A stretch of DNA of 4,909 nt from a virus. Its lineage: Duplodnaviria; Heunggongvirae; Uroviricota; Caudoviricetes. The stretch lies in the IMG/VR virus record IMGVR_UViG_2703718815_000009. One strand, 5' to 3'. This document shows positions 1-4,909 of the stretch, piece by piece. The notes beneath the pieces are model-generated. The model did no database searches and was not told the origin of the DNA. It saw nothing but the letters and a program-made list of their open reading frames with translations. Both the position numbers and the translations under genes were made by a program. Each line of letters begins with the position of its first letter. The first letter of the stretch is position 1.

Positions 1-1230
1 ATGAGCAGAGCACTTAACAAACTGAGCGATACACAGCTGAGGAAAATCAACGGCACACCCGCCCAAAAAACAGCCTTTCTTAATGACGGTGGAAACCTGA
101 GCGTCAGGCATTCAACCAGCGGCCTTTTAACCTGGTATTTCACTTACAGGGCCGGAACGGGAAGGGGGGCACCACCGGAACGCATTAAGCTGGGAAATTA
201 TCCTGATCTGAGCCTGAAATCAGCCAGGGAAAAAGCCGCCCAGTGTCGCGCATGGCTGGCTGAGGGGAAAAATCCACGTCATGAGATGAATTACACCGTA
301 CAGGAAGCGTTAAAGCCGGTAACGGTTGGCGATGCGCTCACCTACTGGCTTGAGTCGTACGCAAAGGAAAACCGTGTGGATTATGACCCACTGAAAAAGC
401 GGCTAAATAATCACGTAATACAGCACATTGGCTCTATGCCGCTGGATAAATGCGAGCTACGGCACTGGCTGGCCTGTTTTGATCGGGTGGCAAAGCAAGC
501 CCCTGTTTCCGCCGGGTTCCTGCTACAGACATGCAAACAGGCGCTTAAGTTCTGCCGGAAGCGGCGCTATGCAATCAGCAACGTTCTTGATGATATGAGT
601 GTGGCTGACGTTGGGAAAAAACCGGATATAAGCGAACGTGTCTTAAGCAATAAAGAACTGGGCGAATTATTGCAGGCACTGGACAAAAAAATATTTTCCC
701 CTTACTACGTCGCACTAATCCGCCTCCTGATTGTTTTCGGATGCCGGACAGTAGAACTGAGGTTATCGGAGATCGGCGAGTGGGATTTTACCGAAATGCT
801 CTGGACTGTTCCGAAGGAGCACAGCAAAACGAAGGTAGCCATATTCCGGCCCATACCGGAAGCGATACTGCCGTTCGTCACGCAGCTGGTGGAGCAGAAC
901 AGGCACACGGGCTTATTGCTGGGGGAAGTGAAACAGGAAACCAGCGTATCGCAGTACGGCAGATTGGTGCACAGGAGGCTTAAACACCCTCACTGGTCAT
1001 TGCATGACATCCGGCGCACCTTTACAACGATGCTGAACGATTTAGGCGTGGATCCTCACGTCGTGGAGCAGCTTACAGGACACCAGATGCCAGGGATGCA
1101 ACGAGTCTATAATCACTCCCGTTATCTGGATGCGAAACGCAATGCGCTGGATATGTGGACGGAGCGGTTAGGGATACTGGCGGGAGCACATGAAAACGTA
1201 ACCACGCTACCAGTAGCCAGAAGAAAATAA
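1..1230 (+). CDS. int: Tyrosine recombinase / site-specific integrase, P4-type phage integrase family
   Basis: 409-aa ORF ending at TAA 1228-1230. The C-terminal region has the tyrosine-recombinase catalytic pattern: HDIRRT (His-x-x-Arg box), then GHQMPGMQRVYNHSRY about 30 aa later carrying the second His and candidate nucleophile Tyr. The N-terminus (LSDTQLRK...DGGNLSV...GLLTWYFTYRAG) fits the arm-binding domain pattern of P4-like integrases. The ATG sits on the first base of the window, so the true start could lie upstream. Confidence 0.9.
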   Translation: MSRALNKLSDTQLRKINGTPAQKTAFLNDGGNLSVRHSTSGLLTWYFTYRAGTGRGAPPERIKLGNYPDLSLKSAREKAAQCRAWLAEGKNPRHEMNYTVQEALKPVTVGDALTYWLESYAKENRVDYDPLKKRLNNHVIQHIGSMPLDKCELRHWLACFDRVAKQAPVSAGFLLQTCKQALKFCRKRRYAISNVLDDMSVADVGKKPDISERVLSNKELGELLQALDKKIFSPYYVALIRLLIVFGCRTVELRLSEIGEWDFTEMLWTVPKEHSKTKVAIFRPIPEAILPFVTQLVEQNRHTGLLLGEVKQETSVSQYGRLVHRRLKHPHWSLHDIRRTFTTMLNDLGVDPHVVEQLTGHQMPGMQRVYNHSRYLDAKRNALDMWTERLGILAGAHENVTTLPVARRK

Positions 1231-1285: not shown

Positions 1286-1325
1286 CGAACAATGTGAAAC
1301 AACGTGGAACAACCACGAACAAGAG
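1286..1325 (+). repeat. Four tandem degenerate ~10-bp direct repeats (cgAACAAtgt / gaAACAAcgt / ggAACAAcca / cgAACAAgag), helically phased
   Basis: An AACAA core recurs at 1288, 1298, 1308 and 1318, an exact 10-bp period, in a T-poor, A/C-rich stretch. Phasing with the helical repeat suggests an iteron-like or protein-binding array; function unknown. Confidence 0.6.
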
Positions 1326-1445: not shown

Positions 1446-1533
1446 GCATTAATATGAATTTAAATGATTTTATCCTGATTGTTCCTCTTTCTGTAAACCA
1501 TACGGACTCAACATTTGCCAACGCTGAATCATC

Positions 1534-1605: not shown

Positions 1606-1794
1606 GTGTTAAGCACAGATCGCTTTATACGTGAAAAAGAATGTCAGCAACTTACAGGCCTGAGCCGCTCATGTCGGTATCGCCTGGAGAAGACTGGACA
1701 ATTCCCATCACGGCGTAAACTCGGCGGTCGTTCCGTTGGCTGGTCTTTATCCGAAGTTCTGGCATGGAAGGACAGCCGCGAGGCAGTTCACTAA
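1606..1794 (+). CDS. alpA: AlpA-family phage regulatory protein (small winged-HTH activator/excisionase-like)
   Basis: 62-aa ORF with GTG start at 1606, preceded by an AAAGGGGG Shine-Dalgarno at 1594-1601. The translation LTGLSRSCRYRLEKTGQFPSRRKLGGRSVGWSLSEVLAW matches the AlpA-family pattern (TG-x-SR-x3-Y ... FP ... KLG-x-RSVGW ... SEV-x2-W). Its position directly after a P4-type integrase is typical. Confidence 0.85.
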   Translation: MLSTDRFIREKECQQLTGLSRSCRYRLEKTGQFPSRRKLGGRSVGWSLSEVLAWKDSREAVH

Positions 1795-2088: not shown

Positions 2089-2154
2089 AGTGGGAACAAG
2101 GGAAAACAAAAGCATCACCAACAATGCCACATTTGCGGCTGGTGGGCAATGCAA

Positions 2155-2385: not shown

Positions 2386-2691
2386 TTACTCCTGCTCTTT
2401 GGCCTTGCGACGCTGGAGTTCTTCACGCGCGACGGTGACGAGTTGCCCGATCTCCTCGGCAGCTTTAACTCCGATTTTTTCCACCTGCGCCAGCGCATCG
2501 AGCGAAGAAACCAGGGGGTTTTCTCCGCTTCCTTCTGCCTGGCGGCGGGCGATCTCACCGCGCATGGCGGTTACTATGAATCCGGCGTTGCTTTCGCCGT
2601 CCAGTTTTACGGATTCCATGCCTTCAAAAGCATCATGTGGGATACGAATTGAAATCTGTTTTGATTTGTCGTTGATAGTGTTTTTTGCCAT
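2386..2691 (-). CDS. Small putative DNA-binding regulator, possibly ribbon-helix-helix (Arc/MetJ-like) with a charged helical C-terminal tail
   Basis: 101-aa ORF starting at the ATG at 2691-2689, preceded by a strong AGGAGA Shine-Dalgarno with 6-nt spacer (the upstream in-frame ATGs lack an RBS). Codon usage is good. The N-terminus KQISIRIPHDAFEGMESVKLDGESNAGFIVTAMRGEI has the strand-helix-helix spacing of Arc-type repressors (compare Arc FNLRWPREVLDLVRKVAEENGRSVNSEIYQRVM), a fold-level inference only. The gene abuts an operator-like region with inverted repeats. Confidence 0.7.
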   Translation of the reverse strand: MAKNTINDKSKQISIRIPHDAFEGMESVKLDGESNAGFIVTAMRGEIARRQAEGSGENPLVSSLDALAQVEKIGVKAAEEIGQLVTVAREELQRRKAKEQE

Positions 2692-2713
2692 GTGCATTCT
2701 CCTAAACAAAAGA

Positions 2714-2789
2714 TGTGATTCAGTATACACAAAAAAGAATCACAAAAAATACTTGACCTGTGATTCAGTTGATTTTAATTTAAATCACA
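2714..2789. promoter_or_regulatory. Divergent promoter/operator region with two copies of TGTGATT-N17-AATCACA around a TTGACC -35 element
   Basis: TGTGATTCAGT occurs identically at 2714-2724 and 2759-2769. Inverted partners GAATCACA (2737-2744) and AATCACA (2783-2789) lie at the same offset, giving two ~31-bp sites 45 bp apart. Rightward promoter candidate: -35 TTGACC 2753-2758, 17-bp spacer, -10 TAATTT 2776-2781. Leftward -10 candidate: TATACT (reverse complement of 2722-2727). The second operator overlaps the rightward promoter spacer. Confidence 0.6.
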
Positions 2790-2814
2790 CCTCAGTAAGA
2801 GGATGTAAACGACA

Positions 2815-2848
2815 ACGCCCCGAACTGTTTGCGGCAGTAGCGGGGCGT
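2815..2848 (+). other. GC-rich stem-loop in the 5' leader of the rightward operon (ACGCCCCG ... CGGGGCGT, 8-bp stem, 18-nt loop)
   Basis: Read directly as a perfect 8-bp inverted repeat, with additional CTG/CAG pairing possible inside the loop. There is no downstream U tract, so it is not a terminator; it lies between the predicted promoter and the RBS at 2867-2870. Confidence 0.4.
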
Positions 2849-2878
2849 CTAACCAAACCGTTAAACGAGGTAACGATT

Positions 2879-3223
2879 ATGGCTGGAACACAGCATACCC
2901 AAACTCACCCTAAATTTATATACACCTTCCTGGCGGTGCACCGTGATTGCATAGCTGACGGTAAAAGCACTGTACACGTAGCCGCTGATACGCTGGTTGA
3001 TGCCTGCGAGATGCTCAATGACATGGGTTATATCTCGGCAACATGGAAAGGGCGCGAAGAAAACACGCTGTTTATTCAGAAATGCGAAAACAATTTTATC
3101 TGGCGTTTTATCGCCCTGAGCACGGCACAACCGCGCGTGATTACCATTGAGGCCACCAGCGAACAGGAAGCACGCCAGCGTGATGGTATTCGCCGCCCGT
3201 ATTCGTCAGGGGGTACGCCATGA
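2879..3223 (+). CDS. Hypothetical protein (114 aa), first gene of the rightward operon
   Basis: ATG at 2879 preceded by GAGG (2867-2870) with 8-nt spacer; stop TGA 3221-3223 overlaps the next start (ATGA). This is the only credible part of the 458-aa frame 1847-3223 in the ORF track. No domain recognised. Confidence 0.7.
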   Translation: MAGTQHTQTHPKFIYTFLAVHRDCIADGKSTVHVAADTLVDACEMLNDMGYISATWKGREENTLFIQKCENNFIWRFIALSTAQPRVITIEATSEQEARQRDGIRRPYSSGGTP

Positions 3224-3480
3224 GCAATAACACCCGTCCGGACGCAGTCGCCGAAGCAATCAAAACACTGATTGATGCGCTGATTGATATTTCTGTTATC
3301 GCAGACAAGGCGCATAAGCACGCCACCAGTGAAACAGAATATGCCGGGGCTTTCGTTCCTCACTCACTGGCTGTTATGCAACTTAGTGCTGATATGGCAC
3401 TGAATGAGGCTAAAGCCATCCTGATTGCTGATTGTGAAAATGGGGGGGGGGTATGCGTGATGATCGTTTTAATGCCCTGA
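3220..3480 (+). CDS. Hypothetical protein (86 aa); 3' end runs through the G10 tract
   Basis: ATG at 3220 overlaps the upstream stop (ATGA); GGGGG at 3208-3212 gives an RBS at 7-nt spacing. Alanine-rich and predicted helical. The last 13 codons (GGGVCVMIVLMP) lie after the homopolymer and look like out-of-frame read-through, so the true C-terminus is uncertain. Confidence 0.55.
   Translation: MSNNTRPDAVAEAIKTLIDALIDISVIADKAHKHATSETEYAGAFVPHSLAVMQLSADMALNEAKAILIADCENGGGVCVMIVLMP
3442..3451. repeat. G10 homopolymeric tract at the junction of two overlapping ORFs
   Basis: Ten consecutive G read directly at 3442-3451, encoding GGG of the upstream ORF and ending 1 nt before the ATG (3453) of the next. 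G11 would fuse the two ORFs in frame (...ENGGGGMRDDRF...); G9 would end the upstream ORF at GGGYA-stop. Confidence 0.95.
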
Positions 3481-3686
3481 AACAGGAATTTGATGGCGCA
3501 CCGGAAGATACAGATATTGCGCTGTTATGTGTTGCTGACATGGTAAAAGCTGCAAGTTTTTTACTGGAAACCGCCGAACATTCAGGAACGGGTAGCGATA
3601 TTCTCAATATTGCGTCGGACTATGCGGAATATGTGGCAGAGGCGCGTTACAGAAGAAAATTCCCGGAGAATGTAAGCCATGTGTGA
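3453..3686 (+). CDS. Hypothetical protein (77 aa); possibly the C-terminal half of a frameshift-split or slippage-controlled gene
   Basis: ATG at 3453 immediately after the G10 tract; the 5' G residues of the tract (3442-3445) could act as a Shine-Dalgarno at ~7-nt spacing. Stop TGA 3684-3686 overlaps the next start (ATGTGTGA). Acidic and alanine-rich, no domain recognised. Confidence 0.5.
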   Translation: MRDDRFNALKQEFDGAPEDTDIALLCVADMVKAASFLLETAEHSGTGSDILNIASDYAEYVAEARYRRKFPENVSHV

Positions 3687-3912
3687 TATTTACAATGACA
3701 CAGTAGACCGTGCATACCGTGCTCTTGCTTACAGTGAAAACATGCTTGAAATATTGCGCTTATGGCTTGAAACGCTTGGCGATAATGAAAGAGATAAACG
3801 CAACAGCAATATTGCGACGGCGTTAATAACGCTTCTTGAGCCGGTAATAATGGAACTACAAGAAATAGACCTTTTGCACGACAGATATAAAGAACAACAC
3901 ACCGGGAAATAA
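3679..3912 (+). CDS. Hypothetical protein (77 aa)
   Basis: ATG at 3679 with GGAGA (3665-3669) upstream at 9-nt spacing; overlaps the upstream stop by 8 nt. Predicted helical (MLEILRLWLETLG...), no domain recognised. Confidence 0.6.
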   Translation: MCDIYNDTVDRAYRALAYSENMLEILRLWLETLGDNERDKRNSNIATALITLLEPVIMELQEIDLLHDRYKEQHTGK

Positions 3913-3917
3913 AAACC

Positions 3918-4217
3918 ATGAAAAAGAAAATTTCTGGCTTTACTGCCAGCGGCCCCGTTCGGCCTGAAATCCGCCCCGGCGATATTTTCCGGGATAACTA
4001 TGGCGGCACGGTAACGATTAAAGGCATTGCCGGACGGTGCGTTACTTACCGCCGTGATGGGTACGGCTATGACTGCGTGATGCCTGTTTATCAGTTCCGG
4101 CGTGATTTTTCACTGATACAGGCCACGCCATGCAAACAGCCCACCAGCAACGCAAAGGCACGGGCAAATATTCAGAAAATGAAAAACATGATTAACGCAT
4201 TCAGGGGCACAAAATGA
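3918..4217 (+). CDS. Hypothetical protein (99 aa), basic
   Basis: ATG at 3918, 5 nt after the upstream TAA, with a weak GGGAA RBS; stop TGA 4215-4217 overlaps the start of the next gene (ATGA). No motif recognised. Confidence 0.6.
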   Translation: MKKKISGFTASGPVRPEIRPGDIFRDNYGGTVTIKGIAGRCVTYRRDGYGYDCVMPVYQFRRDFSLIQATPCKQPTSNAKARANIQKMKNMINAFRGTK

Positions 4218-4909
4218 AACTGGCACCGAACTTAAAAAAACAGCCACACGACAAAATGACCGAAGTCATTATTTTTGCAGGTAGTGATGCCTGGGCGCAC
4301 GCGAAACAGTGGCAGGAACAGGACGGGCGACTTGCTGGCGACAACGTGCCACCTGTATGGCTTGGAGACAGCCAGCTTGACGAACTGGCAGACCTGAAAA
4401 TTATCGACGATGGTCGCTATTGTGTGCGTGTGTATAAAGCCGGGCACATCAGACCATCAAACATCAATGCCATCGGGCAAAAGCTGGCGGCGGCAGGTGT
4501 ACGGGATGCGAATTATTACCCCGAGGGAATGCACAGCCAGAAGCTGGAGAACTGGCACGACTACCTGCAACGGATCCGCGAACAGGCAGAGCGCGGGGAA
4601 ATTCTTACTGACGAGCAATACAGCCAGCGAAAAACCACGCTACCAATGAGCATTGGATCTGCAGGGTACGACACACAGCTTGATTATGTCGTTAAGGGCG
4701 TGATTCCGGCTAATTCATTGTGTAGCACATACGGCGCGAGCGGTTCCTATAAATCGTTCCTCGCGTGTTCCTGGGCGTGTCATGTTGCCACGGGTCGCCA
4801 CTGGGGAGGCCGCAGGGTGGCGCATGGTTCGGTGATGTATGTCGTCGGTGAAGGTGGCATTGGTGTCCCTCGTCGTATCAAAGCATGGGAAATCGTTAAT
4901 GATGAACGG
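4214..4909 (+). CDS. RepA-like replicative P-loop NTPase (AAA_25 / RecA-fold helicase family), 3' partial, runs off the window
   Basis: Open frame from ATG 4214 (AGGGG RBS upstream, coupled to the preceding stop) to the window end, 232 codons with no stop. Residues ~150-215, SLCSTYGASGSYKSFLACSWACHVATGRHWGGRRVAHGSVMYVVGEG, parallel the P-loop and following strand of RSF1010 RepA-type helicases (GGAGKSMLALQLAAQIAGG...GPVIYLPAED). The Walker-A-like motif GASGSYKS is deviant, with Tyr where the second Gly normally sits. The ~150-aa N-terminal region is unassigned. Confidence 0.75.
   Translation, partial: MKLAPNLKKQPHDKMTEVIIFAGSDAWAHAKQWQEQDGRLAGDNVPPVWLGDSQLDELADLKIIDDGRYCVRVYKAGHIRPSNINAIGQKLAAAGVRDANYYPEGMHSQKLENWHDYLQRIREQAERGEILTDEQYSQRKTTLPMSIGSAGYDTQLDYVVKGVIPANSLCSTYGASGSYKSFLACSWACHVATGRHWGGRRVAHGSVMYVVGEGGIGVPRRIKAWEIVNDER

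Follow-up and report, generated by a model that had tools for sequence, protein, structure and literature searches.

Recombination directionality factors (RDFs) generally bind head-to-tail on repeats that are spaced one helical turn apart (PMC7498355). In phage 186, the direct repeats bound by Apl lie 10–11 bp apart, five of them at att and seven in the pR-pL switch region, and binding was shown to be cooperative and to bend the DNA (PMC7498355). Winged-helix monomers of lambda Xis are likewise arranged head-to-tail, one turn apart, on the sites X1-X1.5-X2, giving an architectural bend (PMC7498355). TorI of prophage KplE1 uses the sites GTTCG, GATCG and GTCCG, three of which adjoin the -35 of PintS, spaced by 10 bp (PMC2951348). 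The TorI sites at attL overlap PintS, adjoin the Int arm-type sites and are located directly upstream of int, and no second, non-att array was reported in that source (PMC2951348).

The closest characterized homolog of the AlpA protein studied here is Vis of P4 (46% identity, PF05930), an excisionase and regulator, entered in the P4 record as 'excisionase and transcriptional regulator'. In an island related to the present one, AlpA alone was reported to bring about excision and replication and also to activate its own promoter, and AlpA was without effect on Pint in EcCICFT073 (PMC6092414). Induction of the EDL933 island needs alpA. No defined AlpA binding sites were present in the literature found.

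The Window and Its Host Island

The window, by which we mean the whole analyzed stretch of 4,909 nucleotides, comes from a phage-inducible chromosomal island (PICI), of which it represents the left end, and begins at the ATG of int. The int gene (1–1230, plus strand) encodes a P4-type tyrosine integrase, in which an N-terminal arm-DNA-binding domain (PF13356) as well as the central and catalytic domains were detected by Pfam. An intergenic region of 375 bp containing the repeat array separates int from alpA (1606–1794, plus strand), which has a GTG start and encodes a protein of 62 aa matching Phage_AlpA (PF05930, E = 2.7e-18), our proposed binder of the array. Small ORFs, among them a DUF4222 ORF (3918–4217), lie between alpA and the 5′ part of a replication gene of the RepA-helicase type (4214–4909, plus strand; AAA_25 in Pfam), so that array, alpA and RepA-type helicase follow each other in this order. 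A G10 homopolymer at 3442–3451, at the junction of the small ORFs 3220–3480 and 3453–3686, could be a slippage or frameshift site.

By BLAST, positions 1–2425 matched an island of E. coli WP8-S18-ESBL-07 (L001) at 99.7% identity. This island is integrated between roxA and phoQ, contains capsid, portal and terminase genes and is a capsid-forming PICI of the EcCIEDL933 kind. The match was confined to these positions, and in L001 the int-array-alpA module is joined to a P4-alpha-like primase gene. The remaining part of the window (2426–4909) was 96% identical to the RepA-type islands L026 and L030. The window is a mosaic and shows modular exchange between an integration/regulation module and a replication module. 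None of the complete E. coli genomes in our collection contained the whole window at high identity, and the phage collection gave 0 nucleotide matches to it.

A Helically Phased Array between int and alpA

A first-pass annotation had described four 10-bp units with an AACAA core, repeated at an exact 10-bp period within a T-poor tract, and both observations were confirmed. Positions 1285–1324 read GCGAACAATG TGAAACAACG TGGAACAACC ACGAACAAGA, with AACAA starting at 1288, 1298, 1308 and 1318 and hence a period of exactly 10 bp, which was also the period returned by Tandem Repeats Finder; T makes up 7% and A 48% of the tract at 1275–1335. The array was found to be longer than first described. An additional in-register unit, TACAA at 1278–1282, gives five copies of ACAA (starting at 1279, 1289, 1299, 1309, and 1319), and these are followed by a degenerate sixth unit, GAAAAAG, with AAAA at 1329. 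The putative distal operator array on the minus strand (1278–1334) accordingly comprises six head-to-tail 10-bp units (TACAA, four times AACAA, and the degenerate AAAAA), a run of direct repeats one helical turn (10–11 bp) apart that exceeds the three we took as the minimum. Read on the minus strand the units are TTGTTY(G/C) and are oriented towards int. Apart from the last unit, the tract contains no A-tracts of at least 4 bp. Four copies of any 5-mer at exactly 10-bp spacing occurred in 0 of 2000 dinucleotide-preserving shuffles, the maximum being three copies, when the shuffling was done at three scales (the whole window, the 375-bp intergenic region, and the local 81-bp A/C-rich tract).

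Conservation of the Array among Related Loci

The homologous intergenic region was found in 872 E. coli genomes. An alignment of seven homologous intergenic regions (75–99.8% identity) showed that the AACAA columns are invariant and the spacers between them variable, and in the more divergent islands of this alignment the array extends towards the int stop codon. We further surveyed 92 loci, 80 of which were from IMG/VR. The phased ACAA run was kept in all 59 loci that have the AlpA type of the window and at least 400 bp of upstream sequence, so that the repeats were never absent from these otherwise homologous islands, an absence that the first-pass annotation had named as refuting its reading. 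Six ACAA copies were present in 13 of these loci, five in 34, three in 11, and two in a single locus, which has a point change in a unit. There were 21 distinct array sequences among the 59 loci, and in some relatives GACACAA replaces GAACAA as one of the units. The array is real and under strong selection. Repeat number is polymorphic, in that L063 has a GCAACAATGA unit more than the loci most closely related to it, about 329–282 bp upstream of alpA.

Islands with a second AlpA type (61% identical to that of the window) contained no TTGTTCG-type array after int. Instead, AATATC was found three times with a period of about 10 bp directly after the int terminator in L014 (11617–11642), L015 (11618–11643) and many IMG/VR loci (L072–L092), and some other islands with the second AlpA type had no array after the int terminator. 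In L003, a Klebsiella capsid-forming island (vB_KppS-Ant) with an Int of 50% identity, the int-alpA interval contains two 10-bp arrays of opposed orientation (7130–7220 and 7270–7330), consisting of CATTCAACAG/CACGTAACGA units followed by TGTTCAT units, and TATTCAT and ACTCAT units are present upstream of its capsid operon. The sequence of the array after int thus varies by island group (AACAA, AATATC or CATTCAACAG). A scan of genome contigs for AlpA gave three loci, the Geobacter and alphaproteobacterial ones being too distant to compare. In the CP4-57 element of K-12 (L100), a phased pair GCAACCAAAG TGAACCAATG was found at 3311–3332, directly upstream of the alpA start codon; these two AACCAA units are a weak lead.

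Region between the Array and alpA

A sigma-70 promoter of alpA was predicted by consensus match at 1515–1543 on the plus strand (TTGCCA, a spacer of 17 bp, and CACAAT with TG upstream), and its -35 hexamer TTGCCA (1515–1520) was invariant in 7 of 7 aligned islands. A proximal pair of units, TGACACAATC AGACACAACC, lies at 1535–1554 on the minus strand. It keeps the 10-bp register of the distal array, from which it is separated by 250 bp, and its first unit coincides with the predicted -10 of this promoter. At the position of the proximal pair, L005 and L009 contain the canonical GGAACAAT. Besides, a single consensus unit TTGTTCC in the opposite orientation (1478–1484, plus strand) precedes the predicted start site of alpA by about 70 bp, and this unit was poorly conserved in relatives. 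The predicted -35 of alpA follows the distal array itself at a distance of about 200 bp, and the array is oriented away from alpA. The distance between array and alpA promoter was 220 bp in 35 loci and 207–250 bp in others; given this range, the idea of strict helical phasing between the two was dropped. Within the predicted 5′ leader of alpA, a CA-rich tandem with 12–13-bp units (AACCCAACCCAAT twice) was observed at 1551–1575.

Between the array and the alpA promoter, a conserved hairpin with a 12-bp stem (AAAGGCATAAAA/TTTTATGCCTTT) was found at 1417–1445. It is followed by T6 on the minus strand and by TTTGCATT on the plus strand, and its folding was stronger on the minus strand (z = -4.5) than on the plus strand (z = -3.0). 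In L007, one A-T pair of the stem is changed to G-C, as seen by eye in the intergenic alignment. From these features the hairpin looks like an intrinsic terminator, either of a leftward transcript or bidirectional and also ending int. No conserved -35/-10 pair of a leftward promoter antisense to int was found in either island subgroup.

Occurrence of the Unit at att Arms and at the Late Operon

Across the 14.6 kb of the L001 island, phased TTGTTY(G/C) units were found in just four places: the attL arm (TTGTTCCAGCTTGTTTCA), the int-alpA array, the region upstream of the capsid operon, and the attR arm (TTGTTCCACGTTGTTTCA). At this locus the motif was three-fold enriched in the island compared to the host flanks. 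The int-alpA array is on the opposite strand from the att-arm and late units. The attR arm of an island of the O157 prototype type was the same as that of L001. Occurrence at att arms is known from relatives, since the window starts at int; there the units adjoin the Int arm-type sites in attL and attR of L001, in both arms of L014 and L015, in attL of L016, and in attR of L099. Phased pairs upstream of int were present in 23 loci, with constant strand. Upstream of the capsid operon, several relatives have three units about 17 bp from a -35-like hexamer (a promoter predicted by consensus match), and the orientation of the int-alpA array relative to alpA is opposite to that of the units at this late promoter.

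Among the 92 loci, phased TTGTTY pairs were restricted to the att arms, the int-alpA region and the late operon, besides one pair after alpA, and the strand was fixed at each position. In the window, the pair downstream of alpA is GGGAACAAGG GAAAACAAAA (2092–2111, minus strand), and it was found at the same offset in six related loci. Islands with the second AlpA type contain TTGTTCG arrays in both att arms, and in L016 also at the late operon; the helix and wing residues of this AlpA type are conserved despite its 61% identity.

AlpA as the Proposed Binder

Taken together, the array is reasonably likely to be a non-att operator array for AlpA, which on this sequence-based reading would act both as an RDF and as a regulator, like 186 Apl and P2 Cox. 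The islands encode a small winged-helix protein of an RDF family, namely AlpA, and this is the only annotated DNA-binding regulator common to all of them. Among solved structures, AlpA matches 8C3T, an entry deposited under the name AlpA family phage regulatory protein; the paper describing this PDB entry was not found in the literature. Direct repeats one turn apart that occur at att arms as well as at putative regulatory regions, independent of Int and Rep specificity, form the signature of a dual-function RDF. The array was assigned to AlpA because the distribution of the unit fits such a protein and because AlpA is the sole common regulator and a homolog of Vis. The near identity between the unit and the core sites GTTCG of TorI also supports this assignment.

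Comparison with the described systems showed likenesses and differences. As for 186 Apl, a small RDF and transcriptional regulator, the same unit is found here not just at the att arms but also in two putative regulatory regions outside att. Unlike AlpA, Apl does not belong to PF05930 and represses face-to-face promoters, whereas AlpA is a reported activator, and the array described here differs from the 186 arrangement in that it lies 3′ of int and at a distance of about 200 bp from the promoter, and in that both att arms carry units. The order in attL of the relatives is the same as in the attL used by TorI: the core comes first, then two unit blocks, the arm pair and the int start codon. 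Like lambda Xis, whose sites are T/G-rich (TGTTGTG, TGTAGTC), the unit arrangement would place monomers head-to-tail. Any likeness in sequence between the Xis sites and the array unit would be loose, and the Xis sites are three in number, confined to one arm, and unaccompanied by a regulatory array outside it. In P4, a phased array with a 10-bp period precedes the vis promoter, as in the window, and the Int arm sites take the form of tandem 12-bp pairs in each of the two arms, as in the relatives studied here. Unlike the proposed AlpA array, the P4 array is bound by the Cox protein of the helper and not by Vis, and its unit is TTAAAGNCA (PMC3936717). GAACAA-like words are present near the P4 promoter PLL. 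In the P4 sequence (L002; accession no. NC_001609), the annotated 'ori type 2 repeats' at 9176–9205, CCACTTAAAG three times, fit the cox-box consensus TTAAA(G/C)NC(A/C), and two TTTGTTCA words were observed between these repeats and vis (9131–9172); they read GAACAA on the vis-coding strand, with the same polarity as in the window.

Several observations weaken the assignment to AlpA. Islands with the second AlpA type have TTGTTCG arrays at the att arms and none after int; a different protein may therefore use the position after int, or the array may not be essential. The distance of about 200 bp from the -35 of alpA and the orientation facing away from this gene also weaken it, as does the fact that Pint was unresponsive in EcCICFT073, although units lie upstream of int in relatives. 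Furthermore, units are found in both att arms, whereas classical RDFs usually occupy one, and TorI is only a remote relative of AlpA (26% identity, without a match to PF05930).

Other Candidate Functions

In L001, comparison with the empty K-12 site placed the crossover core, GGACATATTT, at about 12669–12680. The array is found in this island at 14129–14185, about 1.45 kb from the core and past the int ORF, which bears out the earlier remark that its position is unexpected for an att site. Both arms of L001 contain a 12-bp tandem pair, GGTGTAGTTAAT twice (12807–12830 and 27218–27241), and one of these pairs is located 22 bp before the int ATG. A doubled 12-bp motif was also seen upstream of int in L004, L007, L014, and L016 and at 4850–4871 and 5083–5104 in L003. 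The motif differs with the N-terminal type of Int, being GGTGTAGTTAAT, GGTGTAGTCACT or TGTGTGGTCAGT, and TGTATAAACA in a Klebsiella relative; GTTAAT and GTCACT are among the words of the 12-mers that differ in this way. It changes even between islands whose AlpA proteins are 97–100% identical, whereas the TTGTTC/AACAA units, like the helix and wing residues of AlpA, are constant across four Int arm specificities. From its position and covariation, the doubled 12-bp motif probably represents the Int arm-type sites. A comparable doubled motif was described for helper-embedded PICIs, where its binder was left open (PMC10111431).

Arm-type recombinase sites and iterons had both been named as possibilities in the first-pass annotation, and neither agrees with these comparisons. 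It is highly unlikely that the units are accessory arm-type sites of Int, used for instance for autoregulation of Int from the 3′ side of its gene. Int does possess an arm-binding domain, P4 int contains one annotated arm repeat, and tandem repeats one turn apart occur among arm sites too. However, the array lies far outside the roughly 200 bp around the crossover core in which arm sites are expected, and it does not covary with the arm-binding domain of Int, its TTGTTC word being constant over the four specificities. A different motif follows Int in this way and shows the arrangement known from P4, with tandem 12-bp pairs in both arms. Iterons of a replication origin, recognized by the initiator of the island, are what the array almost certainly does not represent, even though the minus-strand word TTGTTCC is similar to the type I iteron of P4, TGTTCACC, and the array is followed by an AT-rich stretch. 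Genuine GGTGAACA iterons were found immediately 3′ of the primase gene in L001 and L003, and repeated words 3′ of rep were seen in about 90 loci (in L001 at 18386–18409 and 18514–18540, in L003 at 11720–11950). These words covary with Rep: GGTGAACA for the P4-like primase, GGTAGAC for a distant primase, AAGTGAG/AAGTGGG for RepA, and AACCCGC, GGGACAAC or CGGGATA for DUF927. Because these iterons covary with Rep and the array does not, being the same beside primase, RepA and DUF927 genes, the resemblance to TGTTCACC was rejected as evidence of an origin. The window itself couples a left module of the L001 type (99.7% identity) to a Rep of a different family. The layout of a PICI origin, in which rep is adjoined by an AT-rich region with an iteron set on either side, was likewise found 3′ of rep and not at the array. 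In agreement with this, experiments on EcCICFT073 placed its origin 3′ of rep, and a rep-ori plasmid without the region of the int-alpA array replicates (PMC6092414).

A protein other than AlpA may be considered as the binder. One alternative is that a protein of the helper phage, most plausibly its excisionase, docks on the array and switches on alpA. This appears unlikely, though several findings point that way. The literature found names no helper-encoded inducer of Gram-negative PICIs, cross-talk between phage and PICI excisionases has been reported, and TorI-type phage excisionases recognize GTTCG. P2 Cox activates P4 PLL, which transcribes the alpA homolog vis, via at least six phased cox boxes (PMC3936717), and P4 itself has three 'type 2' repeats of 10 bp, located upstream of vis, that conform to the cox-box consensus; by position only, the array described here is likewise a phased array upstream of the vis/alpA promoter of a satellite. 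The array after int also differs by island group, as if different helpers were sensed. If this were true, an excisionase or other DNA-binding protein of the helper would polymerize on the units and start the positive feedback of AlpA, as a PICI counterpart of P2 Cox at P4 PLL; the inducer pathway of Gram-negative PICIs would be identified, and the AACAA, AATATC, and CATTCAACAG arrays would define helper specificity. Against this, islands with different helpers have one array type, and the island's own att arms and late promoter carry the same units. Since AlpA by itself brings about excision and replication when no helper is present, these arms and this promoter must be responsive to AlpA. Direct repeats at 10–11 bp are also typical of response-regulator boxes, and alpA of a P4-like prophage in Shewanella is under H-NS control. 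These facts, together with the phased and A-rich nature of the tract, would suit a host factor (such as a response regulator of the OmpR/PhoB class or a nucleoid protein) or intrinsically bent DNA. We nevertheless regard this as distinctly unlikely, for the invariant C of AACAA in an unselected alignment indicates base reading rather than curvature, A-tracts of at least 4 bp are confined to the last unit, and both a run of five to six tandem units and the presence of units beside Int arm sites in the two att arms are typical of RDFs and not of two-site regulator boxes; the enrichment of the motif in the L001 island over the host flanks points in the same direction. Exceedingly improbable is a function of the repeats in RNA, within the 3′ untranslated region of int, as an Hfq (ARN)n motif, a Rho loading site or a structured RNA. 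Each unit does contain two A-R-N triplets, the tract between int stop codon and terminator is T-poor and has more C than G, and a ProQ/FinO protein is encoded by some relatives. However, at the att arms and the late promoter the units are on the opposite strand relative to transcription, an exact 10-nt period suits B-DNA, the RNA of the array folds weakly (z = -2.1 and -0.5) with a small stem that is not conserved in relatives, and an Rfam scan of the window by E-value gave 0 matches.

Proposed Role of the Array

Of the functions originally suggested for the repeats, cooperative binding on one face of the DNA, a directionality factor and regulation of alpA are retained here, as far as sequence comparison can support them. 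The array is best filed as a putative operator array of an RDF/regulator, a type known from Xis, Cox, Apl, TorI, and Vis. With AlpA as the binder, we infer the following regulatory outcome. AlpA, a small winged-helix protein of the Vis/Xis kind, would be both the RDF and the master activator of the island, and its monomers would bind cooperatively to the TTGTTY(G/C) units and bend the DNA as in RDF filaments. At the att arms, the units beside the Int arm-type sites would allow assembly of the excisive complex, and upstream of the late operon AlpA-bound units would recruit RNA polymerase. The array and the two units over the alpA -10, 250 bp away, may share in the reported autoregulation of alpA. 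In this, the array would be a high-affinity nucleation or capture site that sets the threshold and sharpness of induction, possibly by looping to the proximal pair, and it may also, or instead, insulate alpA from transcription of int.

AlpA is the master switch of Gram-negative PICIs, including the capsid-forming ones, and the array is the first sequence-level candidate for how AlpA reads DNA in E. coli phage satellites. The unit TTGTTY(G/C), with 10-bp phasing and in four fixed places, represents a concrete and testable candidate for the AlpA regulon, and it separates putative RDF sites from Int arm sites in the att sites of these islands. It may also provide a handle for the search for inducers, for the engineering of PICI-based delivery vehicles, and for the annotation of islands.
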